Assembly: GCA_031362565.1 (NCBI GenBank)
Contig: JANLSU010000103.1
Span: 1 to 64,000, forward strand
Source: a bacterium
GTDB lineage: Bacteria; Krumholzibacteriota; Krumholzibacteriia; G020349025
Length of the DNA stretch: 64,000 bases
Direction of reading: 5' to 3'
The stretch's first letter is position 1. Each line of letters begins with the position of its first letter. The notes under the pieces are model-generated. The model worked only from the letters and a program-made list of their open reading frames with translations, had not been told where the DNA came from and did not search any database. This document shows positions 7,353-37,628 of this stretch, piece after piece. Made by a program: the position numbers and the translations under genes.

Positions 7353-7445
7353 GGTGCGGCTCCCACGCGGCTGGAAAACCGCGCTAAGCAGACTCGATCC
7401 GGCGTTTGGCGTCAAGGTCTGGGCCCCTGGTGCCGGGCCCGGGCG

Positions 7446-7461
7446 TGGTCCTCTTCTTGCA
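7446..7461 (+). promoter_or_regulatory. Possible sigma54 (-24/-12) promoter for the FAD-oxidoreductase / glutamate-synthase-like operon
   Basis: TGGTCC-TCTTC-TTGCA has the correct GG-N10-GC spacing with 2 mismatches to TGGCAC-N5-TTGCW, about 60 nt upstream of ATG 7523. Confidence 0.35.
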
Positions 7462-7522
7462 GCACGCCGTTGCCCTTGGTTTTCGTGTTGTAACGTTCGA
7501 CTTCGCGAAGGGCTCGAGCACG

Positions 7523-10093
7523 ATGAGCGTCGGATCGTTTTTTACCGCGACCCTGGGCACTTCGCTGCAGGAATTCTTGACGTTACCGCGCGATCGGGCC
7601 GCGGCTCTCGTCCGCGGTCGAATTCCGGACTTGCTGCACCTGCTGCGCGCCGGCGCGCCACCAGCGGACGCACTGGAGCCACGCCGCACCGTCCAATGGG
7701 GCAAGAGCCTGGAAGGCGCGCTCCTCGAGGCGCTGAAGCCGCAAGGGCTCGAACTCCAGAATCTGCGCGATCGCATCATCACCGATGGCTTCATGCGGTC
7801 CGAGCTCGACCGCGATCAGAACGTCTACTTGACCGAATTCTTCACCCGGGTGCTGACGCGCGCCGTTCCGGACCTCGTTTTCCAGCCGGCCCACGCGCGC
7901 GAAGTCGAAGTGGCACTCGAATGGGCGCGGCGCCACCGGATCGGCATCGCCACCCGTGGTGCCGGCAGCACCGCCATGGGCGGCGCGGTTCCAAACGACG
8001 GCGGCCTGCTGCTCGAGATGTCGCGCTTCGACCAAATTCATATCGATGTTGCGGACCAGGTCGCGGTGATCGGCGCCGGGGCGCGCCTGAAAACGATTCA
8101 CGGCCGTTTGGCGGCGGAAGGCCTCGAACTCACCACGTATCCATCGAACTTGGGTGGCACATTGGCCGGCTGGTTCAGCGCCGGTGGATTGGGACTCAAC
8201 TCGTTCACCCATGGTGCCGTACAAAACCAAGTGCGAGCGCTGTCGATGGTGTTGCCGCGCGGCGAACAGGTGCATTTCCATGCCGACGGGCGGTTGGATG
8301 TGCTTGCCCCGGAAGCTCAACGGCTCCCGAAGGCGGCGACCGCCAAATGGTTCGAGGCGCACGGCTATCCGGCGTTGACGCTCGCCGACCTGCCGCAGAC
8401 CGAGGGCCAGGTGGGTGTCATCCTGACGCTCACGATGGCAGTTCACAAGCTGCCGGAGCGCACTCCCTTCTATCTCGAAGTCGAAACCGACGGCCAAGCC
8501 ATCGAACTCGCGGCGCACGTCGCCCAAGCGGCCCAGAAGAATGGCGCCAAACCGGCGAACTTGAAGTTCTTGTCGGCCGCTCATGTCGCCGGGGTACGGG
8601 CGATTCGTGGCGACGCTAAACGGGCTTCGAAACCCGCCGTGTACGTCGACTTCGAAGGCGCCGACGAAGCGCAAAAATTCGCGCGCGGTCTCGACACCGC
8701 GCCGCACAAACCACAGAGCGACGAAGCCGAAGCCCGCCGCTGGTTCGCGGATCGCTTCCGCCCGCAACAGACGAAACGCTTGGGCCCCGGCTATCTCGCG
8801 GCCGAGATCCTCATGCCGGCCGAGCATCTGGCGGCATTTCAGGAGGCCGCGGTCAAGCTGGCGCACCGCGTCGGGGTGCATCTCGAAACCGAGGCCTACT
8901 ACTTTGGCGACGGCCGGGTGCTGGCGCTGCCGGGCTACCTGACGCGGGGGCCGCGCTCGGGTTTCCTGTGGGAGCTCGTGCTCGCGCCGATCTTGCTCGA
9001 CCTTGCCATGCAACGCTTTGCGGCGATGCCCTATGTGCTCGGACGCTGGCAGTCGCCGTACTTCGGATGGCGTTACGACAAGGACACACGCCGCCGCTTG
9101 CGCGACAACAAACGGCGCACCGATGATCGCCGGGTCTTGAATCCTGGCGTGTTCTTTGGACCGGCGTTCCGCGTTCCCGGCGTGCAGGGCGTGTTTCGCA
9201 CCACCTTCCCGCGCGGCATTCGCACCCTGCGCGGTTTTTATGGCTCACCGCTCACGGCGTGGTTCTTCCGCGCCGCCATCGGTGCCCGGCATGATCATGC
9301 GGACGGGGCGCGTGTTTCGGCGCGCTGGAACGCCACTGCCGAGGTTGCCGACGCCGAGGCGCGGCGCATGGCGGCCGACTTGGAGAAGTGGCGGCTCGAA
9401 GACTTGGCGCACGCGGCGCGCGGCTGCGTGAACTGCGGCGAGTGCAACAGCGTTTGCCCGATCTTCCACGATGCGCGCATCCGGCTGCCGCAAATGTTGA
9501 CCCACATCGGTGAAGGACTGCGCGCCGGCGCGACGCTCGGCGGGACCGAGCAACTGCTGCTCGATATGTGCATGCGCTGCGGCAATTGCCAGGAAGTCTG
9601 CCAGGCCGACATCCCGCACCTGCCGTTGTATGACGCCATGGACAAGCACGCCGGTGCCGCCGACGAAGTGCGGCGCGAGCGCCATGCGGGAGTTTTGTCG
9701 CATCTACGCTACTCGGAGCGCTACACGCGCGAATTCCTGAATGTGCGTCCGGGCGGCTACTTGCAGCGGACGCCGGCATCGCTTCCCGGCGAGATTCGTT
9801 TCGTGCTCTTCCGGGCCGAGGCCGATGCCGGGCCGGTCGATACCTGCATCCATTGCGGCGCCTGTGTGCCGGTCTGTCCGACGAGCGCCAACCTCGAATT
9901 CCAAGATAAGGCCGATGTGCGCCGGATTTCCACCGACCTGACGCGCTGCATCGGCTGTGGAACGTGTGTCGAAGTGTGCCCGGCGAATCAAAAGAACGGC
10001 AGCCGCACCTTGCGCGTCATGGAAGCGCCGAATCGCGAATTCTTCGAGTTGTTTGCGGCGTTCGAGGCCGGGACCGACGGGAGCCCACGATGA
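7523..10093 (+). CDS. FAD-linked oxidoreductase (VAO/GlcD-type FAD-binding domain) with four [4Fe-4S] motifs
   Basis: PDLVFQP...RGAGSTAMGGAVPNDGGLLLEMSRFDQI...GTLAGW, and LNPG at the end of the cap domain. Fe-S motifs: CVNCGECNSVCP, CMRCGNCQEVC, CIHCGACVPVCP, CIGCGTCVEVCP. Stop overlaps the next ATG (ATGA 10090-10093). Confidence 0.88.
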   Translation: MSVGSFFTATLGTSLQEFLTLPRDRAAALVRGRIPDLLHLLRAGAPPADALEPRRTVQWGKSLEGALLEALKPQGLELQNLRDRIITDGFMRSELDRDQNVYLTEFFTRVLTRAVPDLVFQPAHAREVEVALEWARRHRIGIATRGAGSTAMGGAVPNDGGLLLEMSRFDQIHIDVADQVAVIGAGARLKTIHGRLAAEGLELTTYPSNLGGTLAGWFSAGGLGLNSFTHGAVQNQVRALSMVLPRGEQVHFHADGRLDVLAPEAQRLPKAATAKWFEAHGYPALTLADLPQTEGQVGVILTLTMAVHKLPERTPFYLEVETDGQAIELAAHVAQAAQKNGAKPANLKFLSAAHVAGVRAIRGDAKRASKPAVYVDFEGADEAQKFARGLDTAPHKPQSDEAEARRWFADRFRPQQTKRLGPGYLAAEILMPAEHLAAFQEAAVKLAHRVGVHLETEAYYFGDGRVLALPGYLTRGPRSGFLWELVLAPILLDLAMQRFAAMPYVLGRWQSPYFGWRYDKDTRRRLRDNKRRTDDRRVLNPGVFFGPAFRVPGVQGVFRTTFPRGIRTLRGFYGSPLTAWFFRAAIGARHDHADGARVSARWNATAEVADAEARRMAADLEKWRLEDLAHAARGCVNCGECNSVCPIFHDARIRLPQMLTHIGEGLRAGATLGGTEQLLLDMCMRCGNCQEVCQADIPHLPLYDAMDKHAGAADEVRRERHAGVLSHLRYSERYTREFLNVRPGGYLQRTPASLPGEIRFVLFRAEADAGPVDTCIHCGACVPVCPTSANLEFQDKADVRRISTDLTRCIGCGTCVEVCPANQKNGSRTLRVMEAPNREFFELFAAFEAGTDGSPR

Positions 10094-13000
10094 GCACGAC
10101 CACCGGCCGCACCCACTCCCGGCACCAAGCGCCGCATGCCCCAGCGACGGCGCCCGACGCCAATTCGGTGCTCATGCAGCGGCTGCGCGTTTGGGAAGAC
10201 TTGCTGACCCTGGTCGTCGACCGCGACTCGCACCAGGTCGCCGAGCGTGAGAATCGCCTCCTCCTGCTCGATCAATTGCTGGTGCGCGGCGGCCTCGAGC
10301 CACGCGAATTCTGGACCCTGCCGACGGCGCGGCGTAGCCGCACGTTCCTGGCGCACTATTCGCGCTTGCAGCGTTCGGTGCCGCAACTCGAGATCGCCAG
10401 TTTCGACGTCGACAAAGCGGCAAAGGAGCGCTTCCGGAGTGAACCACTGACGCTCGGCGCATCGTGGCACTACGGGTTTTGGCGCAGCTATTTCTCGCAC
10501 GCGGCGATCACGCACCCGGCCAATGACGGCCTGCGCGAGGAATTTTCGACAGCCTGGGATATCCTGCGCAAGGATCCCGCCGTGTTGCTGCTCGATGCCA
10601 ATGGCCGCCACGTTCTGACCCGGCCGTTCGTCCACCTGGATCTGCCGATTCTCGTCGGGCCCTTTCCACACTCGGACGGCACGACAGTCGAGCGCGCCTA
10701 CTTGGAAGCCGTGCGGCGTGCCGATCCGGCGCGCGATCTCAAGATCGCGACGCGGGTCATCGTCGACAGCGACACGTACCGGACGCATGCAACGTTTTAC
10801 GCCTCGTACCGCCAGAACCTCATCGTCCGCATTCCGCTCGAGGAATTGGCCGCCAATGCCGCGACGCGGCAGCCGGGTGGTTGGGACGTGGTGCGCGAAC
10901 TCGCGGATACGGCGCGCCTCGTCGAGGTCGCAGTGCCCGAGGCCTGCGACGCCGCTCGCCTGCAAGCGGTGCTCGAGCGCTTGAACCGCGAGTACCCGGA
11001 GCTTCTGATTTCGGTCTACTTGCGGTACGGCGAGGAATTCTGGACGTTGCTCTACGCCGCGGCGCGCGCCGAGGGGGTGGCCATGGTGCACGTGCACGCG
11101 GGACCGGAGAAATCCTACCGATTGGTGCCGTGCGTCGACGAATTCCTGAAGCAAGCGCATCTGCGATCGCGGGTGCAATTGGTTTCGGCGGGTGGCGATA
11201 CCGACACACTGCCGTCGGCGGCCGCGGTGTACGAAGCGGTGCTCCTGGGCGCCAACGGCGGCTCGGTGACGCACCTGGCAGAACTGGCGCTGGCGCCGGA
11301 TTTCACGGACGTGGGGCGCGAGGTCCTGGACGCGGCGACGGTCTTCGCCGGGCTGCGCGACCGCGACGCCAAGGAACTCGTGGAACTCGCGGCCTCGTCG
11401 CTCACTTGCTGGCAGCATTCGATTCTGGATTTCCTGTCATGCATGGGCATCGACGACGTGCAGAAGACCTCCGGCAACACCATGGCCATTACCATGACGG
11501 AAGAGTGGATTCGCGACGTCGATGCACTCGCCACGTCGGCCTTCGGCCAAGTGAACAAATCGCTGAATGCGCGGCGCGTCGCCGCCGAGCCGATTCCCGC
11601 CGAGGTGCGCGACCGGTTCCGGGTATCGCGGCTGCTGCAAGAAGTCACGCCCGATGTGCCGCTCGTGGCGGCAGCCAATGTCCTGGCGCACCGCAACGCC
11701 AACTACCACTTGATGAACACCAACCGCAGCCTGACGGCCGATCACTTGAATGTGATTTACCGGATGGCGGCGGGCCGGATGCCCGAGGCGGATGACTTCT
11801 TCCTCGACAGCGATCTGGGTCCTTGGTCCATCGACCGGGTGGGCGTCAAGCTCGAGCGGCGCGACGTGCAGGCGTCGCTCGATGCCTTGCGCCGCGATTC
11901 GCGCGCTCTCGATTACATCAGCTTGGCGGTGCCACGCGGTTTCGACCGGCCTGGTGCCGTGCCGTCGCAGGCGGCGTGCGTGCTCACCGCCGATCGCGCC
12001 GGCAAGACGGTCCTCGTGCGGTTCACCGCCGACGCGACCGGCGCATTCAATGTCGCCGTCCCGAGCGACGGCGGCACGGCAAGTTTGTACCTGCATGTGA
12101 CCGCGCCTGGCGAGACCGCGGCGCGGGTCGTGGAGTTGAAAGCAGCGCCGGCGCCCGAAAGCACCAATGGCATCGACCGGCGCCCGGCGCCGAGCGCGCC
12201 GCCCGGGCTCTCGGTACGCAAGGCGAGCAGCGATCAACGCGTGCTCCTCAAGGCGCAAGCGCCAGGTGGCTTCCGGCTCGAAGGCGACGGCACACGCGAA
12301 CCGGTGTACACGGGCCCCGTGAACCATGCCAGCATCAGCTTGGGTGCGGCGAGTGAAGACTTCCTCTTGGCGCGCGTCGAAGGCAATGCCGGTTTGTCGA
12401 TGACGTCGTCCGGTGAAGGCGGTCCACTGCGTTTGCCCAAGGACGTCATGGCGTGGGAGTCGATGCAGGCTGCGTCGGGGCACTTCGGAATCACCGGCGC
12501 CGACTTGCGGCTCGTGCGCGACGTCGAGATCAAAATCAATCAGGGCGCGAAGCCCGGCAAGGGCGGCCGGTTGTCCGGTCCCAAAGTGACGCCGACGGTG
12601 AGCCGCGCGCGTCATATCCCGGTCGGGGTCGATGCCCTGTCGCCGGATCCCAAGCACGACATCTATTCCATCGAAGACATGCCGGCCGAAGTGTGGCTGT
12701 GGCTGCAGTACGGCGTGCACTGTGGCATCAAAATCACCGGCTCGACCTACACGCGCTTCGTGGCCGCCGGCATGTGGTCCAACTTCGTCGTCGACTATCT
12801 GCTCATCGATTCGGGGATGGGTGGTTCCGGGAACTACCACGCGGATTCGTCGCGGGTCGGCTGGCCGGACATCTTCCGGACGATCTTGCACACCCATCAT
12901 GCGCTCGTGCAGGAACCGCTGTACGACGATGCGACCGGTGAGACGCATCCGATTCGCGATCTGAACGGCGCGGCGTTCGGCGCCGGCGGCGGCACGCGGC

Positions 13001-16000
13001 TTCTGGCCTCGGGCGGCCTGCGAAGCGAAATGGACATGCTGAAGGTGCTCTGCGCCGGCGCCGATGGATTGCTCGAGGCGTCCATCGGCAAAGCGGTGGC
13101 GTTCGGTTGCAACCAGTGCGGCAATTGCCACCTGGATTGCCCGCGCGGCGGCATCACGACCAAGCTCGAACTCATGCTGCAAAACGATCGCGCCACGATG
13201 CGGCAGCGTTTCCGCAACTGGACGGCACTCGACATGGCCAAACTGGCAGTGCTCATCGATGCCATCAACCGCCGTTCGGGAGCGGTCGACGCGGAGGGCA
13301 ATGTCACCAACCGCGCCGAGGTCATCGACGACATCCGCAAACTGCGCGGCCGTACGGATCTCTTGGTGATGCCGCAGCATCCGGCGCCACCGGTCCCGAT
13401 CGTGGTTCCCACTGTCGCGGACGTCGAGCGCGCCCTGGATGTCGATGCAAAGTCAGCGGCGGCGCGGCGCGCTGCCGACGGTGCGACGGGACCGCAGGCG
13501 ACGGCTGCCGGTGCCGAGACGAGTGCGCCGCCCCCCATCGAACACGACTCGTGCCGCGTCGGCAGCTTGCTCGTCTCCGAGCGCGTCGACGTCAGTGCGA
13601 TCTGGGAATCGGCGCGTCTGTCGCACAATGGCGGCAACAACCGCGGCGGCGGCATCGGCTTCGCGGGCTTCGCCCCCGACGCCGTGCGGCAGCGCACCGC
13701 GCTCTTCTTCAACACCATCGGACCCGACCGCGGCGAAACCATGGAGCGCATGCTCGGGCATCTGGATGGACTGCGGTTTTACGACGCGCAAGGCCGCGAG
13801 CTGGGCGCCGATGAAGTGCGCCTCCGCTTGCCGGAATTCCGAGTGCCGGTGCGCGCCGAGTGGGCCGGCGACGACGGTTGGCGCAAAGTGGGCCTGCGCG
13901 AAAACCCGGGTGACATGACGCTCCTCTTCACGGAGCTGCGCGGCGATGCGCTCTGGCGCTACGGACAGCGGTTGGTGGAAAGCCCGCGCTGGGTGCAGCG
14001 TTCGACCAAGTACGGCGACATCGCCACCGCCGAGCTGCAGGGCGCTCTAGAGCGCGCCGTACGCCGCGATGAGCCGTTTGTCGCCGCCGACGAAGATGCG
14101 CGCCTGATGGCTTTCTTGCGCGACGTCAAAGAAGAATACTTCACGACTCTGGCGCATGTCCTCGACACACGCTACTACCGCACCGGCGGCGCGATCCCAA
14201 AGTACGCCGACCGGCGGCGTGGTTTCGTGGTCGCGATGGGCGAGGACATGGGTGCACTCAAGGTGAGTGGCTGGACGCATCTCATCCCGGCCTATTTCGA
14301 TCTCGACAACTTCTGGGCATCGTATCCGGGGGCGCGTGAACAGGGCGGGGTGCGTTTCCTGATTCGCGGCGAGGATACCTGGACGACACGTCTGGTCGCC
14401 TATGCCTGGGGGATGCACCACCGCTATCCGACGAATTCACCCGCCATGGACGCCGAAGGCCGCGGCAACCCGGCCGGTGCACATCCGTTCAAGGCTTACA
14501 ACGTGCTGCTCATGCACAACGGCGAGCAGGTGGGCGTCGATTCGACCGCGCCGATGCTCACCGAACACGCTTGGGTCCACATCGATGATTCGATGGGCGA
14601 GGGTGCCGCTGAGTACGAAGGCGATTCGCTGTACGCGCGGAAGGCGCTCACCGACACCGAGTACGCCGCCTATCTCGTCGACTTCACACGTCGCGTGCTG
14701 GGCTTGGCGACCGACGAAGCGACCCAGGTCATCTCGCCGGTCACCGGCATCGACCTCGAGGCCGTCGAGCCCGAGGAACGCCGCGAACGCTACCGGGTGC
14801 TGGGCCGCAACTTCGTGCACCTGACGCCGACCGGTCCCTACAAGTTCACGATTCTCGAAACCCGCCATACCGCGGCCGGAACCCAAGTCGGGTTCCGCGA
14901 GAACATGGATATCAAGTTCTTGCGCCCGCACGAAATTGCCATCAACTGGGACACGGCGCCGGGCGGCGTCAAGGCGATCGCCAACGGCAGCGAAGCCAAG
15001 ATTGCCGACGCCATGTTGGTGACGCTACGCCAGCAGGCCATGCTGTGTGATGCGGGCAGCGACCTGCGCTTCAACATGCGGCCGGGCGGCCGGCCGGGTA
15101 CGGGGGAAATGGGCGGCGTCTTCGAGGCATTCGTGGGCGTCGAAAGCGGCACCGTGACTCTCAACAATCGGTTCGGTGAGGCGGTGCCGGTGCGCCGCGC
15201 CGGGACCAAGTCGGAAGCGCTGCGCGTTCTCAAGACCGCAGTCAACGGCGCCCGCAAGAAAATTGGCGACGAGGCGCGGGCGCGGTTGCAAGCCGCCGAC
15301 GCGGCAGCGTTCAGCGGCCCGGCGCGCGAGGAATTCGTCGCCTGGACACTCGACAAGGTCCGTGAGTGGAGCTTCGACGAGTACCGCATGGTGGCCGAGT
15401 GGCTCTTGCCGCAAGCCGGCCAAAAGTCGCCGGCGCACTTCGATGCCGCACTCGGCATGCTAACGGAACTCCGCAAACGCCTGCACTTGGCCGACACGGG
15501 CGGCAAGTCGCTCGCGGCACTGCAATACATGACGGACGGCGGCTTCGAGTATGACGGTGAGCCCGAGGGCGGCATCTACCGCTTGCTGCATGCGGTGCCG
15601 CGGCTCTGGGACACCAAGGGTGTGGCGCCGTACGGGCGCATCGACGTAGCGACGCGCGCCGATCTCATGCCGCCTGGGGATCCATCACAAGCGCTGGTCG
15701 TCAACTTCGACGGCTTCGAGAGCGAACAGTTTGGCACCATTGAAGCGGCGCGCTTTGTCTCCGACGCCGTGGCGCGAGGTTGGCGGCGCTTCATCGGTTA
15801 CAACATGCGGGGCGGGCCGCGCTACGTGGGCACGAATACCGCCGACAGTGACGGCCGTCCAGCCGATGGCGTGCGCATCGATCTCTACGGCCGCCAGTTC
15901 GGCGACTTCATGGGTGCGCTCCTGGAAGGCGCCGACATCCGGTGCTACGGCCAAGGCCAAAGTCATGTTGGCATGAAGGCCGACCGCGGTTCGATCTTCG

Positions 16001-16620
16001 TGCTGCAGGACATCCTGAACACCGGGCTGTATGCCGCCCACGGCGGCACGCTCTCGATGTGGGATTCGGGCAGCCGCTTCGCGGTGGCGGGCCAGAACCG
16101 GGTGCATTTGGAAGATGGCACGACGCTCGCGCCGGGCCTGAAATCGATTCACTTTGGTTCGCCCAACGAGTACGCCTTCGAGTACTTGATGTCGGGTGGC
16201 GAGAACTCGCTGCACGTGGTGATGGGGCTCGAAAAACCGGATGCCAAGGGCCAACTGAACGGGCGCTTGCGGCCCTACGCCGGCAAGTTCTTCATGTCGG
16301 GCGCTGCCGCCGGCCGCGTCTATGTCTTCGATCCCACCCGCGCCCTCGAAGCCGGCCAGGTGCACGGCAATGCCGGCGAGCCGGTGACGGTGGAGGAGTG
16401 GGACGCGGAAGTCGGCCCGTTCATCGCCGCCGAAGCCGCCAAACGCAGCCTGCCGATGCAAGTCGTGCCCGGCGGTTTCCGGATCCAATTGGGCGGCGAG
16501 TGGCGCGACTACGCCTGCGGTGATGCCTTCATGCGCTACACGCCCATCCGGGTGCCGAAATCCATCCAACGCCAGGGCGTCGCACCGCCGGCACTCGTCG
16601 GCATGCTGGACGAGCTCTGA
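10090..16620 (+). CDS. Domain-permuted glutamate synthase large-subunit-like protein (2176 aa): degenerate FMN barrel + FMN/Fe-S synthase domain + internal class II glutamine amidotransferase + GXGXG domain
   Basis: GltB FMN motifs SSGEGG, QAASGHFGI, EIKINQGAKPGKGGRLSGPKVT, SPDPKHDIYSIED, ASGGLR, CNQCGNCHLDCP. GATase-II motifs EHDSCRVG, HHRYPTNS, AHPF, MHNGE, TDTE. Beta-helix motifs GDFMGALLEG, AFEYLMSGG, FMSGAAAGRVYV. Start set by the ATGA overlap. Confidence 0.85.
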   Translation: MSTTTGRTHSRHQAPHAPATAPDANSVLMQRLRVWEDLLTLVVDRDSHQVAERENRLLLLDQLLVRGGLEPREFWTLPTARRSRTFLAHYSRLQRSVPQLEIASFDVDKAAKERFRSEPLTLGASWHYGFWRSYFSHAAITHPANDGLREEFSTAWDILRKDPAVLLLDANGRHVLTRPFVHLDLPILVGPFPHSDGTTVERAYLEAVRRADPARDLKIATRVIVDSDTYRTHATFYASYRQNLIVRIPLEELAANAATRQPGGWDVVRELADTARLVEVAVPEACDAARLQAVLERLNREYPELLISVYLRYGEEFWTLLYAAARAEGVAMVHVHAGPEKSYRLVPCVDEFLKQAHLRSRVQLVSAGGDTDTLPSAAAVYEAVLLGANGGSVTHLAELALAPDFTDVGREVLDAATVFAGLRDRDAKELVELAASSLTCWQHSILDFLSCMGIDDVQKTSGNTMAITMTEEWIRDVDALATSAFGQVNKSLNARRVAAEPIPAEVRDRFRVSRLLQEVTPDVPLVAAANVLAHRNANYHLMNTNRSLTADHLNVIYRMAAGRMPEADDFFLDSDLGPWSIDRVGVKLERRDVQASLDALRRDSRALDYISLAVPRGFDRPGAVPSQAACVLTADRAGKTVLVRFTADATGAFNVAVPSDGGTASLYLHVTAPGETAARVVELKAAPAPESTNGIDRRPAPSAPPGLSVRKASSDQRVLLKAQAPGGFRLEGDGTREPVYTGPVNHASISLGAASEDFLLARVEGNAGLSMTSSGEGGPLRLPKDVMAWESMQAASGHFGITGADLRLVRDVEIKINQGAKPGKGGRLSGPKVTPTVSRARHIPVGVDALSPDPKHDIYSIEDMPAEVWLWLQYGVHCGIKITGSTYTRFVAAGMWSNFVVDYLLIDSGMGGSGNYHADSSRVGWPDIFRTILHTHHALVQEPLYDDATGETHPIRDLNGAAFGAGGGTRLLASGGLRSEMDMLKVLCAGADGLLEASIGKAVAFGCNQCGNCHLDCPRGGITTKLELMLQNDRATMRQRFRNWTALDMAKLAVLIDAINRRSGAVDAEGNVTNRAEVIDDIRKLRGRTDLLVMPQHPAPPVPIVVPTVADVERALDVDAKSAAARRAADGATGPQATAAGAETSAPPPIEHDSCRVGSLLVSERVDVSAIWESARLSHNGGNNRGGGIGFAGFAPDAVRQRTALFFNTIGPDRGETMERMLGHLDGLRFYDAQGRELGADEVRLRLPEFRVPVRAEWAGDDGWRKVGLRENPGDMTLLFTELRGDALWRYGQRLVESPRWVQRSTKYGDIATAELQGALERAVRRDEPFVAADEDARLMAFLRDVKEEYFTTLAHVLDTRYYRTGGAIPKYADRRRGFVVAMGEDMGALKVSGWTHLIPAYFDLDNFWASYPGAREQGGVRFLIRGEDTWTTRLVAYAWGMHHRYPTNSPAMDAEGRGNPAGAHPFKAYNVLLMHNGEQVGVDSTAPMLTEHAWVHIDDSMGEGAAEYEGDSLYARKALTDTEYAAYLVDFTRRVLGLATDEATQVISPVTGIDLEAVEPEERRERYRVLGRNFVHLTPTGPYKFTILETRHTAAGTQVGFRENMDIKFLRPHEIAINWDTAPGGVKAIANGSEAKIADAMLVTLRQQAMLCDAGSDLRFNMRPGGRPGTGEMGGVFEAFVGVESGTVTLNNRFGEAVPVRRAGTKSEALRVLKTAVNGARKKIGDEARARLQAADAAAFSGPAREEFVAWTLDKVREWSFDEYRMVAEWLLPQAGQKSPAHFDAALGMLTELRKRLHLADTGGKSLAALQYMTDGGFEYDGEPEGGIYRLLHAVPRLWDTKGVAPYGRIDVATRADLMPPGDPSQALVVNFDGFESEQFGTIEAARFVSDAVARGWRRFIGYNMRGGPRYVGTNTADSDGRPADGVRIDLYGRQFGDFMGALLEGADIRCYGQGQSHVGMKADRGSIFVLQDILNTGLYAAHGGTLSMWDSGSRFAVAGQNRVHLEDGTTLAPGLKSIHFGSPNEYAFEYLMSGGENSLHVVMGLEKPDAKGQLNGRLRPYAGKFFMSGAAAGRVYVFDPTRALEAGQVHGNAGEPVTVEEWDAEVGPFIAAEAAKRSLPMQVVPGGFRIQLGGEWRDYACGDAFMRYTPIRVPKSIQRQGVAPPALVGMLDEL

Positions 16621-16645
16621 GGCGTGAACGAACCTTGGCCTGCGC

Positions 16646-17557
16646 TCAGCGAAACAGATCGCCGCTCAGGTACTTGAGCCCCGAGTCGCAAATGACCGTG
16701 ACGATGCGATGCCCGGGGCCCAACTCGCGGGCGCGTTGCAGCGCTACGAACACGTTGGCGCCCGACGAGATGCCGCCGAAGATGCCTTCGACACGCGCCA
16801 GTTGGCGGGCTGTTGCGTAGGCGTCGGCATCCGTGACCGCGACGATCGCATCCGCCAAATCGAGCCGGCAGATGGACGGCACGAAGCCCGGCCCCATGCC
16901 TTCCAATCGGTGGCCGCCCTCGATCGGCAAACCCGACAGCGCCCGCGAGGCGGCCGGCTCGATGGCGATGCAACGAACGCCCGGCACGCGCTCCTTGTAG
17001 ATCTCGGCGTTGCCCGAAAAACAACCGCCGGTGCCGACTCCCATGATGAATTCGTCGAAACGTTCGTCGAGGTCGCGTATGACCTCCTCGGCCATCGCGT
17101 GGTAACCGGACCGGTTGTCGGGGTTGTTGAACTGATCGGTCCAATAGGTGTTCGGGGCCTTGGCCAGCTCGCCGACGCGGACGATGAGTCTTTGGATCAG
17201 TTCGGCGGTCACGCGGTGGTCGACGCTCGGGAGCACGTCCAGAGTGGCCCCAAAGGCGCGCATCGTCTGCAGCTTCTCTTCGGCAAAGCAATCGGCGGTC
17301 GCGAAATGCGCCCGGTAGCCGCGCGTCGCGCAAACCATGGCGAGCGAACTGCCGGTGCTGCCGCCGGTGTAATCGATGATCGTGGCGCCGGGGCGAATCT
17401 GGCCGCGGCGTTCTGCGCCGTCCACCATGGCGTGCGCCATGCGGTCCTTCATGCTGCCGGTGGGATTGGCCCCCTCCCATTTGACATAGATCTCGGCGCA
17501 TTCCGGCCCGGCGAAGTGCCGGAGGCGCAAGAGCGGTGTGTTTCCGATTCCGGTCAT
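16646..17557 (-). CDS. PLP-dependent cysteine synthase family protein (CysK/CysM-like, divergent)
   Basis: IGNTPLLRL, KWEGANPTGSMKDR (PLP Lys), GVGTGG, EGIFGGISSGAN, DSGLKYLS. AAAGGAG RBS precedes ATG 17557. Confidence 0.88.
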   Translation of the reverse strand: MTGIGNTPLLRLRHFAGPECAEIYVKWEGANPTGSMKDRMAHAMVDGAERRGQIRPGATIIDYTGGSTGSSLAMVCATRGYRAHFATADCFAEEKLQTMRAFGATLDVLPSVDHRVTAELIQRLIVRVGELAKAPNTYWTDQFNNPDNRSGYHAMAEEVIRDLDERFDEFIMGVGTGGCFSGNAEIYKERVPGVRCIAIEPAASRALSGLPIEGGHRLEGMGPGFVPSICRLDLADAIVAVTDADAYATARQLARVEGIFGGISSGANVFVALQRARELGPGHRIVTVICDSGLKYLSGDLFR

Positions 17558-17592
17558 GACACTCCTTTGCGCGCCTCTCGTACGGCGCTCAC

Positions 17593-19002
17593 TTACTTCG
17601 ATTCGGTGCACGCGCCCCAGAACTCGTCGCCGCTGACGATACTCTTGGTGCCGTAGCCGTCGAGCGGCCAAGTCGCGTAGAACGCCGTGACATCAAGTCC
17701 GAGCGTCTTCACCGTGTCGCAAAGCTGCTTCGACCGTCCGGTGAGCGGTTTACCCGGCCGGTAAAAAAGCAGGTCACCGGTGGTCAGCACCTTCTGGCGC
17801 GGAAAATAGAAGATCAAGTACTCGTCGGTATGTCCCGAAGCGACGTTGAACACTTGGACCGTGTTGGTGCTGTCCGCGAAGGTGCGGCGGTCTTTGATGG
17901 TCTCGGTACGGAGCGGCTTCGGATCGCGCGCCAGGGCGTCGGGCCGCAGCTCGAACCGCGCCTGCACCACCGCTTCGATGAGCTGCACGGTCGTCGGCGG
18001 CGCGAGCACCGTCGCGCCTTCGTGCACCCAGGCGCGCGTGCCGCCGATGTATTGGCCGTGCAGGTGGCTGAAGGCGAAATAGCGCACCGGCTTGTGAAAA
18101 TGCGCCTGCACCTTGGCCGCGATGCGCTCGCAAGCGCCCGAATTGTAGGCGCCCTCCAACACCATGAGGTGATCGCTGAACTCGGCGATGAAGACCCGCG
18201 TGTTCATCGACGCGACATCGATCGTGAACAAGTGGGGCGCGGCTTCGTGCAGTTCGATCTCGGCGGTTGCGACGACGCGCTGGCGGTCGGCATCCTTGTC
18301 ACCGGCCGGAACGTCCATCTGGACGTTGCGTGTCACCGGGCCAAAGTCGAACCGCGCCACTTCACGCCCGCGCAGTGTGACCACCGCCCGGCCGGGTATG
18401 GCACTCGCATCACCGGCCGGCCAGGCTTCGAAGCGCACTTTTTCGATGCCGTCTCCCAAGACGTCGTTGTACACCGCGCGCTGCAGCGAGCGGATGCGGC
18501 CGTGCTGCGTGTCGAGATCCACGGTCCAGAGTTCGTCGTTCCATGCGAAGAGTGCTGCTTGGCCGGCGGTGTGGGGGCGCAGGTTTTGGCGGTGCTCGCG
18601 GATGGCGTTGGCGATGATCGATGGGTGAAGCGCCGCCACTGTCGCCGCCGCCAGATCGCCGAAGGGCGACGGACGCTTCTCGACGCCCTTGTCATCCACC
18701 TGAAAGAGGCGGCCGCGCCGGACGTTGTAACGGTCGATGTCCTTGGTGCCGGCGGTCTCCCCCTCGGATTCCAGTTCGACGACCGACTCGCCGACATCGG
18801 GATTCACCAGGATGCGAATCGTGATGTCATACCGGTGAAAATCACCTGGATGCATCGGATGGCCTGCATCGGTGACGAAGCCGGTGCCCGAGATCTGGTA
18901 CGGGGCCGTTTCGATATCCGCGACCCGGTCGAAAAGATCGGCGGCCGCCGCGGCGTGCGTCGAAATCACTCCCGCGACAACTGCCAAGCCGAGCCAACGC
19001 AT
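17593..19002 (-). CDS. Secreted protein with C-terminal metallo-beta-lactamase-fold domain (degenerate metal motif)
   Basis: Signal peptide MRWLGLAVVAGVISTHAAAA. KPVRYFAFSHLHGQYIGG sits at the HxHxDH position; GHTDEYLIFYFP and TGDL follow. Confidence 0.72.
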   Translation of the reverse strand: MRWLGLAVVAGVISTHAAAAADLFDRVADIETAPYQISGTGFVTDAGHPMHPGDFHRYDITIRILVNPDVGESVVELESEGETAGTKDIDRYNVRRGRLFQVDDKGVEKRPSPFGDLAAATVAALHPSIIANAIREHRQNLRPHTAGQAALFAWNDELWTVDLDTQHGRIRSLQRAVYNDVLGDGIEKVRFEAWPAGDASAIPGRAVVTLRGREVARFDFGPVTRNVQMDVPAGDKDADRQRVVATAEIELHEAAPHLFTIDVASMNTRVFIAEFSDHLMVLEGAYNSGACERIAAKVQAHFHKPVRYFAFSHLHGQYIGGTRAWVHEGATVLAPPTTVQLIEAVVQARFELRPDALARDPKPLRTETIKDRRTFADSTNTVQVFNVASGHTDEYLIFYFPRQKVLTTGDLLFYRPGKPLTGRSKQLCDTVKTLGLDVTAFYATWPLDGYGTKSIVSGDEFWGACTESK

Positions 19003-19694: not shown

Positions 19695-20954
19695 GTGCCG
19701 ATGACGATGACTCTCCGCGCCCAGAACGCCGGTGATCTCGCCTTCTTTGGCGGCCCGCCGGCGTTCGACGTCAAACTGCACGTCGGCCGGCCGAATATCG
19801 GTGCCCGCGACCGGTTGCTCGAGCGCCTGAACGACATCATCGACCGGCGCTGGTTGACCAATAACGGGGTGTATGTGCGCGAGTTCGAAACGCGCGTCGC
19901 GTCACTGCTCGGCGTCAAACATTGCATCGCGATGTGCAACGGCACCGTAGCGCTCGAGATCACCATCCGGGCACTTGGCCTCACGGGCGAAGTCCTCGTG
20001 CCGTCGATGACGTTTGTTGCCACGGCGCATGCCCTCGAATGGCAGGCGATCACCCCGGTTTTTTGCGACATCGATCCCGAGACTCTGACGCTCGATCCGG
20101 CCGACGTCGAACGGCGCGTGACACCGCGCACGAGCGGCATCATCGGTGTGCATCTCTTTGGCCGCGCCTGCGACGTCGGCGCGCTCGAAGACATTGCCGC
20201 CCGGCGCGGCTTGCAATTGATGTTCGATGCATCACACGCCTTCGGAGCCTCGCACCAGGGCGCATTGATTGGGCGGTTTGGCGCTGCAGAGGTCTTCAGC
20301 TTTCACGCCACCAAGTTCGTGAATACGCTGGAAGGCGGCGCCGTAACCACCAACGACGACGACCTTGCCGCCAAGATCCGGCTTATGAAGAACTTCGGAT
20401 TCGCAGGCTACGACGACGTGCGGCACGTGGGCACGAACGGCAAGATGAACGAATTCTCGGCCGCCATGGGGCTCACCTCGCTCGAGGACATGGATGCGGT
20501 CATCGCCGTGAATCGCGCCAATCACGCCTTGTACCGGCAACAACTGGCGGGGCTTCCCGGCGTGACGCTCCGCACCTACAACGAGGCCGAGCGCAACAAC
20601 TACCAGTACATCGTCCTGCAGATCGATGCCGATGCCACCGGCATCCATCGCGACGACATCGTGCGGCTCTTGCACGCCGAGAACATCATCGCGCGGCGCT
20701 ATTTTCATCCCGGCTGTCATCGCATGGAGCCGTATCGAAGCCGCGACGCCTCCGGCATGGATCTGCCCGTCACCGAGCGGGTCACCGAACAGGTGCTCTC
20801 GCTGCCGACCGGAACCGCAGTGGACAGCGACGACATCGGCAAAGTCTGCGACCGGCTTCGGCACATCGCCTTGAATGGACCCGCGTTGAGCCGCCGCATG
20901 CGAAGCGGCACCGAAGGGGGAACGGCATGGATCGCAGCAGGGAGCCAGGCGTGA
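19695..20954 (+). CDS. DegT/DnrJ/EryC1/StrS NDP-aminosugar transaminase (DesI/VioA-like dTDP-4-keto-6-deoxyglucose 4-aminotransferase)
   Basis: LHVGRPNIG, WLTNNG, CNGTVAL, PSMTFVATAHA, FDASHAFG, SFHATKF (PLP Lys), EGGA, GTNGKMNE, RRYFHPGCH, LSLPTG. Confidence 0.9.
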   Translation: MPMTMTLRAQNAGDLAFFGGPPAFDVKLHVGRPNIGARDRLLERLNDIIDRRWLTNNGVYVREFETRVASLLGVKHCIAMCNGTVALEITIRALGLTGEVLVPSMTFVATAHALEWQAITPVFCDIDPETLTLDPADVERRVTPRTSGIIGVHLFGRACDVGALEDIAARRGLQLMFDASHAFGASHQGALIGRFGAAEVFSFHATKFVNTLEGGAVTTNDDDLAAKIRLMKNFGFAGYDDVRHVGTNGKMNEFSAAMGLTSLEDMDAVIAVNRANHALYRQQLAGLPGVTLRTYNEAERNNYQYIVLQIDADATGIHRDDIVRLLHAENIIARRYFHPGCHRMEPYRSRDASGMDLPVTERVTEQVLSLPTGTAVDSDDIGKVCDRLRHIALNGPALSRRMRSGTEGGTAWIAAGSQA

Positions 20955-23900
20955 ATCGCCTCCAGTCACAAGCCAACGACCCGGTGACGGCGGGCGAAAC
21001 CGCGGGTCACATCCGGCTCAATATTGGCTGCGGTACGGCGCCGATTGCCGGCTTTGTGAACCTCGATCGCGAGCCCGGCGGCGACCTGCAAGTCGATGTC
21101 GCCAATGGTCTGCCGTTCGCCGACGCCAGCGTGCAGACGATCTTCAGTGAGCAGTTCATCGAGCAGTTGTCGCAGGGTGATGGCGTGGCGTTTCTGCGCG
21201 AGTGCCGTCGCGTTCTCGTTCCCAATGGCGTGGTGCGCATTGCGACCGTGGATTTCGACGCTCTCATGAGCAAGTATGCGAGCGACTGGCGCGATCAACC
21301 GTGGCTCACGGAGCGCGACTATGGCTTCCTTGCCAACCGGTGCGAGATGCTCAACACGGCGATGCGAGCTGCCGGCCACCACTGGCTCTACAATGAAGAT
21401 GAACTGGTGCGGCTGGCGGCGGAGGCAGGCCTCGCGGTCGGAGTGCGGCGCGCATTCGGCGTCAGCGATGCGACGCAACTTCGCGGCCTTGAACGCCGGG
21501 TCGACTCGAGTCTGATCGTCGAATTCACCAAGGTCGAAGTCCGCGACACGCGCGACGCCCTCGTCAGCATCGTGATCCCGGCCTGCCACCCTGAGTACTT
21601 CCGCGCCAGTCTCGAGAGTGCCCTGCAACAGACTTATTCCAACCTCGAGATCCTCATTGGCGACGACTGCTCGACGGGCGCGATTCAAGCAATCGTGGCA
21701 GAACGTGCGGCGGCCGACCCACGCATTCGTTACATCCGAAATCAACCCACATTGGGTGCCAGCGACAACTTTCGGCACTTGTTCGACCTGGCGCAGGGCA
21801 CCTATATCAAGTTTTTGAACGACGACGATGTATTGCTGCCGGCGTGCGTCGAACGCCTGGTGCGCTGCCTGGAAGAGAATCCCGCTGTGACGCTCGTGAC
21901 ATCGCACCGGCAGCCGGTCGATGCCGCGGGCGCACCGCTCCCGGACGATCCAACAACCGAGCGCCCCGTCACCCAGGACAGCCGGATCGACGGCGTTTCG
22001 CTGGCAAGTGTGATGTTGGAATCGGGCGTGAATCTGGTCGGCGAGCCAACTACGGTCTTGTTTCGCAAGCGCGACCTAGCGAACGTCCAGCCTCACATGC
22101 TGTCCTTCGGCAACCGGCCGGTTGATTGGAACATCGACCTGGCAATGTGGCTGACGCTGCTCGGCCGCGGCGACGCCATCTATCTCATCGATACACTGAG
22201 TTTGTTTCGCCGCCACGAGGACGTGGAACCGTCCAACGCCAAATGGCACGACCGGGCAGTGGCAGCGTGGGAGCAGTTGCGTTTCGACGCGCGGCGCCTG
22301 GGCTTGTGGAATCCGGACCAGCCGCGCACGTTGCGCGCCACGGCCATCGATGCGGGGCCCGAGTGGCGGGACGACGTTGCGGCGTGCGTCCTGAGTGCGG
22401 AAGCCTGTCTCGATGCGGGCGAGTTGGATGCGGCACAAGCGGCGCTCGAGCAAGCGGTCACGCTCTGTTCCAACGATCCGCGCCTGCGGGTCGCGCTTGG
22501 CAACGTGCATTTGCGCCGTGGCGATCAGGAAGCCGCCGCACGCGAACTCCTGGCTGCAACAACCGTCGATCCCTATTACGCGCCGGCGCACGCCGACCTT
22601 GCGGCAGTGCTGTTGTACGCAGATCAGCCCGATCTCGCCGAATCGACCGCGCAACGCGCCCTCGTTCTCGACCCGCACAATCTCACCGCCATGCAGATCT
22701 TGGGTGGCGCGCACCGGGCGCGTGGGCGCTATGTGGAGGCTATCGAAGCCTATGCAGCGATTCTCCGCGTCCGGCCCGAGGACGCCGATACGCTGGTCGA
22801 CGTCGGCAACTGTTGTGCGGAGAGCGGCCACCTACAAGACGCCAAGAGCTTCTACGCGCAAGCGCTGCGCATCGCGCCGGAACACCCGGCCGGGATCGCC
22901 AACCTGCAGGCCGTCGAGGCCGAATTGGCCGGGCGTCCGATGGTGGATGTTTCGATCCTCATCCCGCTCTTCAACCGGCTCGATCTGACGCGCCAATGTC
23001 TCGAGAGCCTCTGGAAGAACACTCCCGAGGGGCGCTACGAAATCGTCATTGTCGACAACGCCTCGTCCGACGGCACGGCGGAATTCTTGCGGCCGTTGCA
23101 GGCGGCGGGGCGCATTCGCGCCCTCATCAACAGCGAGAACGTCGGCTTTGCAGGCGCCAGCAATCAAGCGGCCGCCGCCGCAACCGGCCGGCACTTGCTG
23201 TTCCTGAACAACGATACGGAAGTGAAACCCGGCTGGTTCGAGCCGCTGGTGCGCATTCTGGATACGGATCCGAGCGTGGCGGCTGTCGGCAGCAAGCTTC
23301 TCTTTGCTGATGGCACGCTGCAGCACGCGGGCGTTGTCGTGATCAACGACCGCACCAACAGCCGCGGCTTGTCGCCGTATCATGTTTACTCGCGCGAACC
23401 CGCCGACCTGCCGGTGGCCAACGAAGCGCGCACGTATCAGGTGCTGACCGCCGCCTGTCTGCTCGTTCGCCGCGCCGCCTTCGAATCGGTGGGCGGCTTC
23501 GACACCGGCTATTGGAATGGTTACGAAGACGTCGACCTGTGCTTCAAGCTCCAAGAGCGTGGCTGGCGCCTGGTGTACGAACCGCAGAGCGTCATCATTC
23601 ACTACGAATCGCAGAGTGGGCCAGAACGCTTCCGTCGGGAATCCGCCAACCTCGATCGTCTGCGCGCGACGTGGGCCGGCAAGGTCGCGCCCGACGCCAT
23701 CCTGCAAAGCGACGGCACGTGCGCGCCCGCGAACTCGGGCCGGGTGCGGGAGTATCAGCGGCTCGCGGCCGCGTCCACGGTGGTCGAGCCACCGGCGGGC
23801 AAGCCGGTCGCGTCCGTCGTCATCGTCACGTACAACTCGGCGCGGACGATTCGCGAGTGCTTGGAGAGTGTTCTGCGCCATGCCTCGGTGCCCGTCGAAG

Positions 23901-35432: not shown

Positions 35433-37628
<2,196 letters not shown>

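Follow-up and report, generated by a model that had tools for sequence, protein, structure and literature searches.

A conserved permuted glutamate synthase-like protein with an internal glutaminase cysteine and a putative self-cleavage site

We analysed a window of 64,000 nucleotides (positions 1 to 64,000 of the forward strand of contig JANLSU010000103.1, from a bacterium of the class Krumholzibacteriia), focusing on a giant gene whose product of 2176 residues resembles the large subunit (GltB) of glutamate synthase (GltS). According to structural models, the protein is a permuted GltB, in which central domain, flavin mononucleotide (FMN) domain, linker, glutaminase domain, helical insert and beta-helix follow each other in this order. 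The glutaminase domain is of the class II (PurF-type) glutamine amidotransferases, and the counterpart of their N-terminal nucleophile (Ntn), Cys1, is the internal Cys1155. In class II amidotransferases, the base is the free alpha-amino group that Cys1 itself provides, and a blocked or extended N-terminus abolishes their glutaminase activity. The chain would therefore have to be cut between Ser1154 and Cys1155, which we consider the best reading of the data and reasonably probable.

The gene lies in a single reading frame that is open across 9964..16620 of the forward strand. Its start is probably the ATG at 10090, which overlaps the stop of the upstream open reading frame as ATGA, and the product from this ATG is identical to the database protein P0002. 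Numbered from there, Cys1155 is encoded by the TGC at 13552-13554, directly after GAC TCG (D, S). Of 7999 candidates scored in a search with residues 1100-1750, 140 proteins had E ≤ 0.001. Most of them have 2000-2250 residues and are 58-85% identical; where named, their sources are Eisenbacteria, Krumholzibacteriia, Planctomycetota, Udaeobacter, Limnocylindria, Sulfotelmatobacter and others. The conservation counts given here were made on an alignment of the 103 homologs of at least 2000 residues. The initial annotation of this DNA had placed the linker text and the motifs correctly (IEHDS at 13537-13551, CRVGS at 13552-13566), an agreement well beyond chance, and the gene is truly one reading frame, as it had claimed: the frame is open, and the junction is continuous in the 103 full-length homologs. 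The features of the gene are the following.

10090..16620, forward strand: giant permuted glutamate synthase-like gene (one open reading frame, identical to P0002, 140 homologs).
10369..11649, forward strand: central-domain-like region, residues ~94-520 with approximate boundaries (alignment of the N-half model to GltS).
11650..13374, forward strand: FMN/synthase TIM-barrel domain, residues ~521-1095 (Pfam Glu_synthase, E 4.1e-44; FMN-barrel enzymes align from ~520-550 to 1095).
13108..13143, forward strand: four-Cys ferredoxin-type motif CNQCGNCHLDCP in the FMN domain (C1007, C1010, C1013 and C1017, each 103/103).
13375..13539, forward strand: variable Ala/Pro/Glu-rich linker, residues 1096-1150 (length variation, composition, low model confidence).
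13540..13551, forward strand: conserved pre-site E-H-D-S, P4-P1 of the proposed cleavage site (homolog alignment; E. coli GltB has ERDN there).
13552..13554, forward strand: Cys1155 codon (TGC), proposed Ntn nucleophile (sequence; 103/103; structural alignments start here).
13552..15174, forward strand: class II (PurF-type, Ntn) glutamine amidotransferase domain with insertions, residues 1155 to ~1695 (VIA-align, Foldseek).
14416..14439, forward strand: HHRYPTNS motif (residues 1443-1449 each 103/103; aligned with E. coli GltB FHQRFSTNT).
14479..14490, forward strand: AHPF motif (every residue 103/103).
14512..14526, forward strand: MHNGE motif with its Asn-Gly (H, N, G and E each 103/103; aligned with E. 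coli GltB AHNGE).
14650..14661, forward strand: TDTE motif (every residue 103/103; occurs in stand-alone relatives too).
15229..15615, forward strand: helical insert between glutaminase and beta-helix, ~130 residues, approximate (helices 567-695 of the C-half model).
15688..16554, forward strand: C-terminal beta-helix (GXGXG) domain (FwdC 5t61_O, Z 12.2; GltS alignment).

We identified the glutaminase domain by its fold. The AlphaFold model of the C half (residues 1148-2176), built on a 57-sequence alignment, had a mean predicted local distance difference test score (pLDDT) of 87.2 and a predicted template modelling score of 0.90. Foldseek ranked glutamate synthases first, then PurF and GlmS/GFAT, all top matches being class II amidotransferases. 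VIA-align gave Z 23.7 with the glutamate synthase 1ofe_A (root-mean-square deviation, rmsd, 3.1; 589 aligned), Z 19.8 with the PurF 6ott_A (rmsd 2.7, 240 aligned), Z 18.9 with the GlmS 1xff_A and Z 15.9 with the EgtC 4zfk_C (model residues 8..548); a proteasome match reached only Z 4.5. The alignments with GltS, PurF and GlmS each begin at model residue 8, i.e., Cys1155, opposite residue 1 of the known chain. VIA-align outputs ranges and no residue pairs, and the register found by hhalign agrees on the Cys. With E. coli GltB, hhalign aligned IEHDSCRVGS with LERDNCGFGL, HHRYPTNS with FHQRFSTNT, and LMHNGEQ with LAHNGEI. This glutaminase register appeared after trimming to the C half, since the full-length rows (A1 against E. 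coli GltB) gave the FMN region only. By structure and by sequence, models and alignments thus support the equivalence of Cys1155 to the Ntn nucleophile Cys1. Downstream, the beta-helix domain aligned with FwdC 5t61_O over model residues 720-1008, and the GltS alignment extended up to GltS residue 1498; the Pfam GXGXG match (E 0.023) was below the cut-off. The helical insert had only weak, unrelated fold matches (Z ~5).

Sequence profiles were blind to this domain. The Pfam and NCBIfam amidotransferase profiles (GATase_2/6/7, purF/glmS) gave no match in the window protein even at E 10, nor with the C half alone, and a phmmer search of the chains of the Protein Data Bank with the C half had no match either. 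The class II call that the initial annotation had drawn from the motifs is nevertheless correct, and it was the structure (Z 18.9-23.7 for the C-half model) that was needed to confirm it. The R-x-x-T, the H-N-G and the acidic D of S/T-D-S/T-E are the motifs with recognised roles in the glutamine site; the window protein has them in HHRYPTN, HNGE and TDTE, which align with the corresponding motifs of E. coli GltB.

The site and its surroundings are strikingly constant. Cys1155 and Arg1156 are each found in 103/103 full-length homologs, as are R1185-G1186, HHRYPTN, AHPF, HNGE and TDTE. The proposal that HDS-C and the next residue should be conserved was borne out: the residues before the Cys are E/D in 103/103, H in 96/103, D1153 in 103/103 and S1154 in 102/103, with His1152 swapped for R or L in the remaining 7/103. 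The linker before them varies freely, the distance from the MP anchor (of ...GRTDLLxMP) to the Cys being 16-96 residues (median 21, n=103 homologs). Its composition is A 0.25, P 0.16 and E 0.10, its last four residues alone are conserved, and pLDDT is below 50 for residues 1130-1154. Conservation of P4-P1 within an otherwise free linker fits a processing site. The annotated likeness to a GltB-type EHD(A/S)-C site stands as a common pattern, E-x-D-x/C-x-hydrophobic-G (the slash precedes the Cys), seen in LERDN/CGFG of E. coli GltB; the exact wording was compared with that one canonical sequence only.

The domains before the linker are those of a glutamate synthase as well. The model of the N half had a mean pLDDT of 77.6, and its residues 94-1098 align to GltS ~444-1193 (Z 22.3 with 7mfm_G, Z 21.8 with 1ea0_A). 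For comparison, a figure legend of PMC8097209 gives the limits of the A. brasilense GltS domains as 1-422 (glutaminase), 423-780 (central), 781-1202 (synthase) and 1203-1472 (beta-helix). Since the N half corresponds to central and FMN domains and the C half to glutaminase and beta-helix, the protein is, on these models, a permuted GltB. The non-canonical domain order noted in the initial annotation is therefore upheld by the model alignments of both halves. Its description of the two halves needs amending: the 1154-residue N part comprises the central and the FMN/synthase domains, and is neither just an FMN half nor a disposable propeptide, whereas the C half is indeed an amidotransferase followed by GXGXG, albeit with the helical insert between them.

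The FMN domain carries a beta-rich insert at ~600-750 and ends in LRGRTDLLVMP; the FMN domain of E. coli GltB and the separate FMN subunits of distant relatives also end in GRTDLL. The CxxCxxCxxxCP motif aligns with a C-x5-C-x4-C stretch of E. coli GltB, which it replaces, and suggests a 4Fe-4S instead of a 3Fe-4S cluster in this domain.

The glutamate synthase large subunit (GltB/GlsF; A. brasilense 1EA0/6S6S, Synechocystis 1OFD/1OFE, B. subtilis 7MFM) is thus the closest known system, with all four domains and matching folds. The C half reaches Z 21.9-23.7 with the same mutual arrangement of glutaminase and beta-helix, and the N half Z 19.2-22.3 to central and synthase domains; the FMN domain with its GRTDLL end and the E-x-D-x/C site are alike by sequence. 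The differences are also clear. In the window protein the glutaminase domain stands between the FMN domain and the beta-helix, whereas the canonical order is glutaminase, central, FMN, beta-helix. Hence the Cys is at residue 1155 and does not follow a short leader (11 residues in the annotated E. coli GltB). CR stands in place of CG, the four-Cys motif differs as described, there are extra inserts, and the partner is a GlcD-like FAD/Fe-S protein instead of GltD. The NCBIfam profile of the glutamate synthase large subunit (NF008730) matched the FMN region only, with 79 bits against an equivalog cut-off of 1047.

We then compared more distant relatives. The C-half search gave 214 representatives at E ≤ 0.001, and a scan of genomes found 497 stretches with a relative, of which 71 loci were kept. 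The stand-alone relatives have ~875 residues, are 23-30% identical, and match Pfam GATase_6 and GXGXG. Among the relatives of the window protein, GATase_6 scores reach 32 bits, the cut-off being 27. Their glutaminase Cys follows EGG (EGG/CGV) in 30/30 loci where the match reached the N-terminal part, and never comes directly after the start codon. Because of this, leader removal would be a need of the whole clade, as judged from sequence. Counted from the first possible start, most loci have a leader of 31-41 residues. It is itself conserved, R18, E36, G37 and G38 being invariant in 15 aligned leaders (A4; L036:9899-12526, residues 1-39), which is unexpected for a disposable propeptide. A local alignment had made this leader look homologous to the LRGRTDLL segment of the fused proteins; we rejected this, as the split FMN subunits, like the FMN domain of E. 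coli GltB, have GRTDLL at their C-terminal end.

Each part has its own gene in these relatives, and the genes follow the domain order of the window protein. The order central-like barrel, FMN, glutaminase plus GXGXG was found in 4/7 loci examined with Pfam, and an FMN-domain (Glu_synthase) gene lies directly upstream of the stand-alone glutaminase gene in 16/25 loci (BLASTP). In a metagenome-assembled genome of Planctomycetota (L016:272-5979), a 1029-residue central plus FMN protein has its stop abutting the start of the glutaminase plus GXGXG gene. This pair corresponds to the two halves of the window protein, here occurring naturally as two genes. The split and uncharacterised GOGAT-like operons (Desulfobacterota, Bathyarchaeia, Chloroflexota and others; L013-L071) have the motifs NRGNG.GGG, HQRYPT, AHPF, HNG and TDTE in common with the giant gene. 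They differ from it by their low identity, by a leader with a conserved Arg ending in EGG/CGV, and by a gene context of MTHFR, FlpD and Hdr-like genes, whereas the window gene has a GlcD-like partner. In Desulfobacterota, the split operons (L013, L024 and L036 at ~5500-9900; L014 and L019 at 12700-18700) adjoin genes for MTHFR, the MTHFR C-terminal domain, FlpD/MvhD, a CCG-domain protein and a 1496-residue HdrA-like protein. This neighbourhood hints at a coupling to a heterodisulfide-reductase-type electron module.

Other giant proteins also have an internal Cys. P0174 (3016 residues) has Cys1896 (KELDA/CGV) after its FMN domain, P0205 (2204 residues) has Cys1258, and in P0204 and P0215 (2526 residues) the internal Cys likewise follows the FMN domain; the position of the Cys among these further giants is ~1258-1933. 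In P0174, P0204, P0215 and P0184 (2526-3152 residues) one chain holds both a GlcD-like FAD_binding_4 (and Fe-S) module and the GOGAT-like domains. The order is reversed in P0184, where glutaminase and beta-helix come first, after a leader of 78 residues whose start is hydrophobic and signal-peptide-like in look. A buried Cys has arisen in several fusions of distinct sequence.

If the chain is cut at Cys1155, self-cleavage in cis would be the most likely route: the Cys thiol would attack the preceding peptide bond and the resulting thioester would be hydrolysed. The products would be a central/FMN subunit of 1154 residues and a glutaminase/beta-helix subunit of 1022 residues, remaining assembled as the domains are in GltS, and both would be working subunits, as in gamma-glutamyltranspeptidase or penicillin acylase. 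Cys1155 would then act as the glutaminase nucleophile, presumably on glutamine, and 2-oxoglutarate at the FMN site would receive the ammonia. The co-translated GlcD-like FAD/Fe-S partner, and not GltD or ferredoxin, would supply the electrons.

There are known precedents for parts of this scheme. PurF-type precursors (MEROPS C44, e.g., B. subtilis PurF) have the same Ntn fold and position of the Cys (Z 16.3-19.8). The part before their Cys needs removal, and a passage of PMC3207474 classes the PurF precursor, in family C44, as self-processing in cis. Known leaders of this type are short, whereas 1154 residues of functional domains precede the Cys of the window protein. Autoprocessing into two chains is described in general terms for other Ntn enzymes in PMC9140057 and PMC3207474. 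Our proposal resembles gamma-glutamyltranspeptidase, penicillin G acylase and acid ceramidase in that one precursor has an internal nucleophile after a spacer and gives two chains kept together. These enzymes belong to other Ntn subfamilies, whereas the fold search with the window protein is topped by class II amidotransferases. We found no description of two-chain maturation in class II amidotransferases, or of this permuted family, in the literature searched, whose coverage left out most subscription journals.

Several observations weigh against cleavage or against parts of its basis. The glutaminase domain appears very divergent, since Pfam and NCBIfam miss it, and hhalign on its own links it only weakly to E. 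coli GltB (probability 18.5%, E 0.0013). The EHDS pre-site has low confidence in the models of both the N half and the C half, and it could equally be a structural element in an uncleaved protein. At the position of Arg1156, E. coli GltB and all 30 stand-alone relatives have Gly. One might also argue that the enzyme is the sole GOGAT of its genome. The giant gene does hold the only strong Glu_synthase domain of the source genome (one weak 24-bit match lies on contig C111), and PF00310 has no match in this genome (100% complete by markers), nor in any of the 41 genomes of the class. The argument is weak, because the giant gene occurs in only 6/41 of these genomes lacking PF00310 (in 5/6 other genomes of the same family and 0/34 from other families), and because the source genome has two GDH-family genes.

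The alternative that survives best is that no cleavage takes place. An internal Cys1155 could work with a substitute base, for which the invariant Arg1156 and the nearby His1152 are candidates, or the domain could be silent (structural or regulatory) in an enzyme that uses free ammonia. The presence of Arg in 103/103 where the other proteins have Gly hints at altered chemistry, EHDS could be fixed for structural reasons, and the GDH-family genes indicate that routes of ammonia assimilation exist. Yet, the invariance of the glutaminase motifs across many phyla is unexpected for a silent domain, and a dead, ammonia-only site, which the initial annotation had offered as its own alternative, is unlikely given that the full motif set is invariant in 103/103. 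Since His1152 is replaced by R or L in 7/103, it is not an essential base, and an extended N-terminus would be expected to abolish class II glutaminase activity. Overall, we regard an uncleaved protein as rather unlikely.

Cleavage at or near the same bond by a separate host protease is improbable. The conserved P4-P1 residues could serve as its recognition site. However, no protease gene is conserved beside the operon, where neighbours vary between loci; a family present in many phyla would need a universal protease; and the homologous PurF precursor is classed as self-processing (PMC3207474).

The last alternative, two genes joined by an assembly error or a stop or frameshift missed in the GC-rich linker, can safely be set aside: nothing was found in its support, 103 full-length homologs are continuous, at least 1000 residues precede the Cys in 106/136 retrieved proteins containing the site, and contigs from other assemblies cross the junction. 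From run X1, which may stem from the source sample of the window, an independently assembled contig covers 13135-14200 with 0 differences, and a 552-base contig of a relative (X2/X3) spans the site with 43 substitutions and no gap, hence an assembly join or hidden stop, which the initial annotation had asked to exclude, is excluded. Contigs of relatives from runs X2 and X3 skip 301-317 linker bases within 13225-13543, which fits the variation of linker length among homologs. We also considered a natural split inside the close family, as 15/136 site-containing proteins have the Cys less than 200 residues from their start. These entries look like short fragments or visibly frameshifted translations, and we rejected the split, although a rare true one may exist.

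Cleavage before Cys1155 thus remains our preferred reading. A broader claim, which we hold to be evenly poised, is that self-cleavage of a polyprotein (2176 residues) into two large working subunits would here create the catalytic N-terminus, the first such case among PurF-type amidotransferases. Self-processing would free the position of the glutaminase in the chain, a trick recurring in several unrelated giant fusions, and would here serve a glutamate synthase of a new kind, powered by a GlcD-like flavoprotein of the 2-hydroxyacid type.

The putative electron donor is encoded directly upstream of the giant gene.

7406..10093, forward strand: partner gene, GlcD-like flavin adenine dinucleotide (FAD)-binding protein (PCMH type) with two 4Fe-4S dicluster domains, start codon uncertain (Pfam FAD_binding_4, E 1.1e-25; Fer4_8; Fer4_10).

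The stop of this gene overlaps the ATG of the giant gene. Its product matches NCBIfam glcD with E 2.1e-18 over residues 160-506, below the cut-off. A homolog of the partner lies directly upstream on the same strand in 8/8 close loci that hold upstream sequence (4/12 close loci hold none), and the other neighbours differ between loci. From this arrangement, the partner is likely the electron donor in place of GltD or ferredoxin.

Other genes of the window were noted. The only match of the genome to the glutamine synthetase family (Pfam Gln-synt_C, E 3.4e-21) is at 36528-36977 on the reverse strand, ~20 kb downstream of the giant gene, inside a frame of 787 residues that, from its length, may encode a type III (GlnN-like) enzyme. 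Just upstream of the partner gene, on the opposite strand (4512-7415), is a gene for a 967-residue Ser/Thr protein kinase with PD40/WD40-like beta-propeller repeats. At 19922-26176 (forward strand), a 2084-residue protein combines TPR repeats and a methyltransferase domain with four GT2 glycosyltransferase domains; a DegT-type aminotransferase gene (19695-20954) comes before it.

The textbook view is that the glutaminase domain of class II amidotransferases has to be N-terminal, since Cys1 requires a free amino group. A conserved family with this Cys 1155 residues into the chain, and further giants with the Cys at ~1258-1933, indicate that the N-terminal rule can be bypassed. Self-cleavage is the likely bypass, and would explain the shuffling of domain order in class II amidotransferases. 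New in this work are the structural alignments that start exactly at Cys1155, its invariance in 103/103 together with a conserved pre-site, the relatives in split operons or as two genes, whose leaders are universal, and the verification of the junction against independent contigs. Since the glutaminase domain escapes curated profiles, such proteins carry just the label "glutamate synthase-related", and their probable dependence on glutamine is overlooked. The enzyme and its flavoprotein partner are found in many uncultured lineages of soil and sediment, where they may represent a way of assimilating nitrogen that has gone unrecognised and draws on an unusual electron donor.

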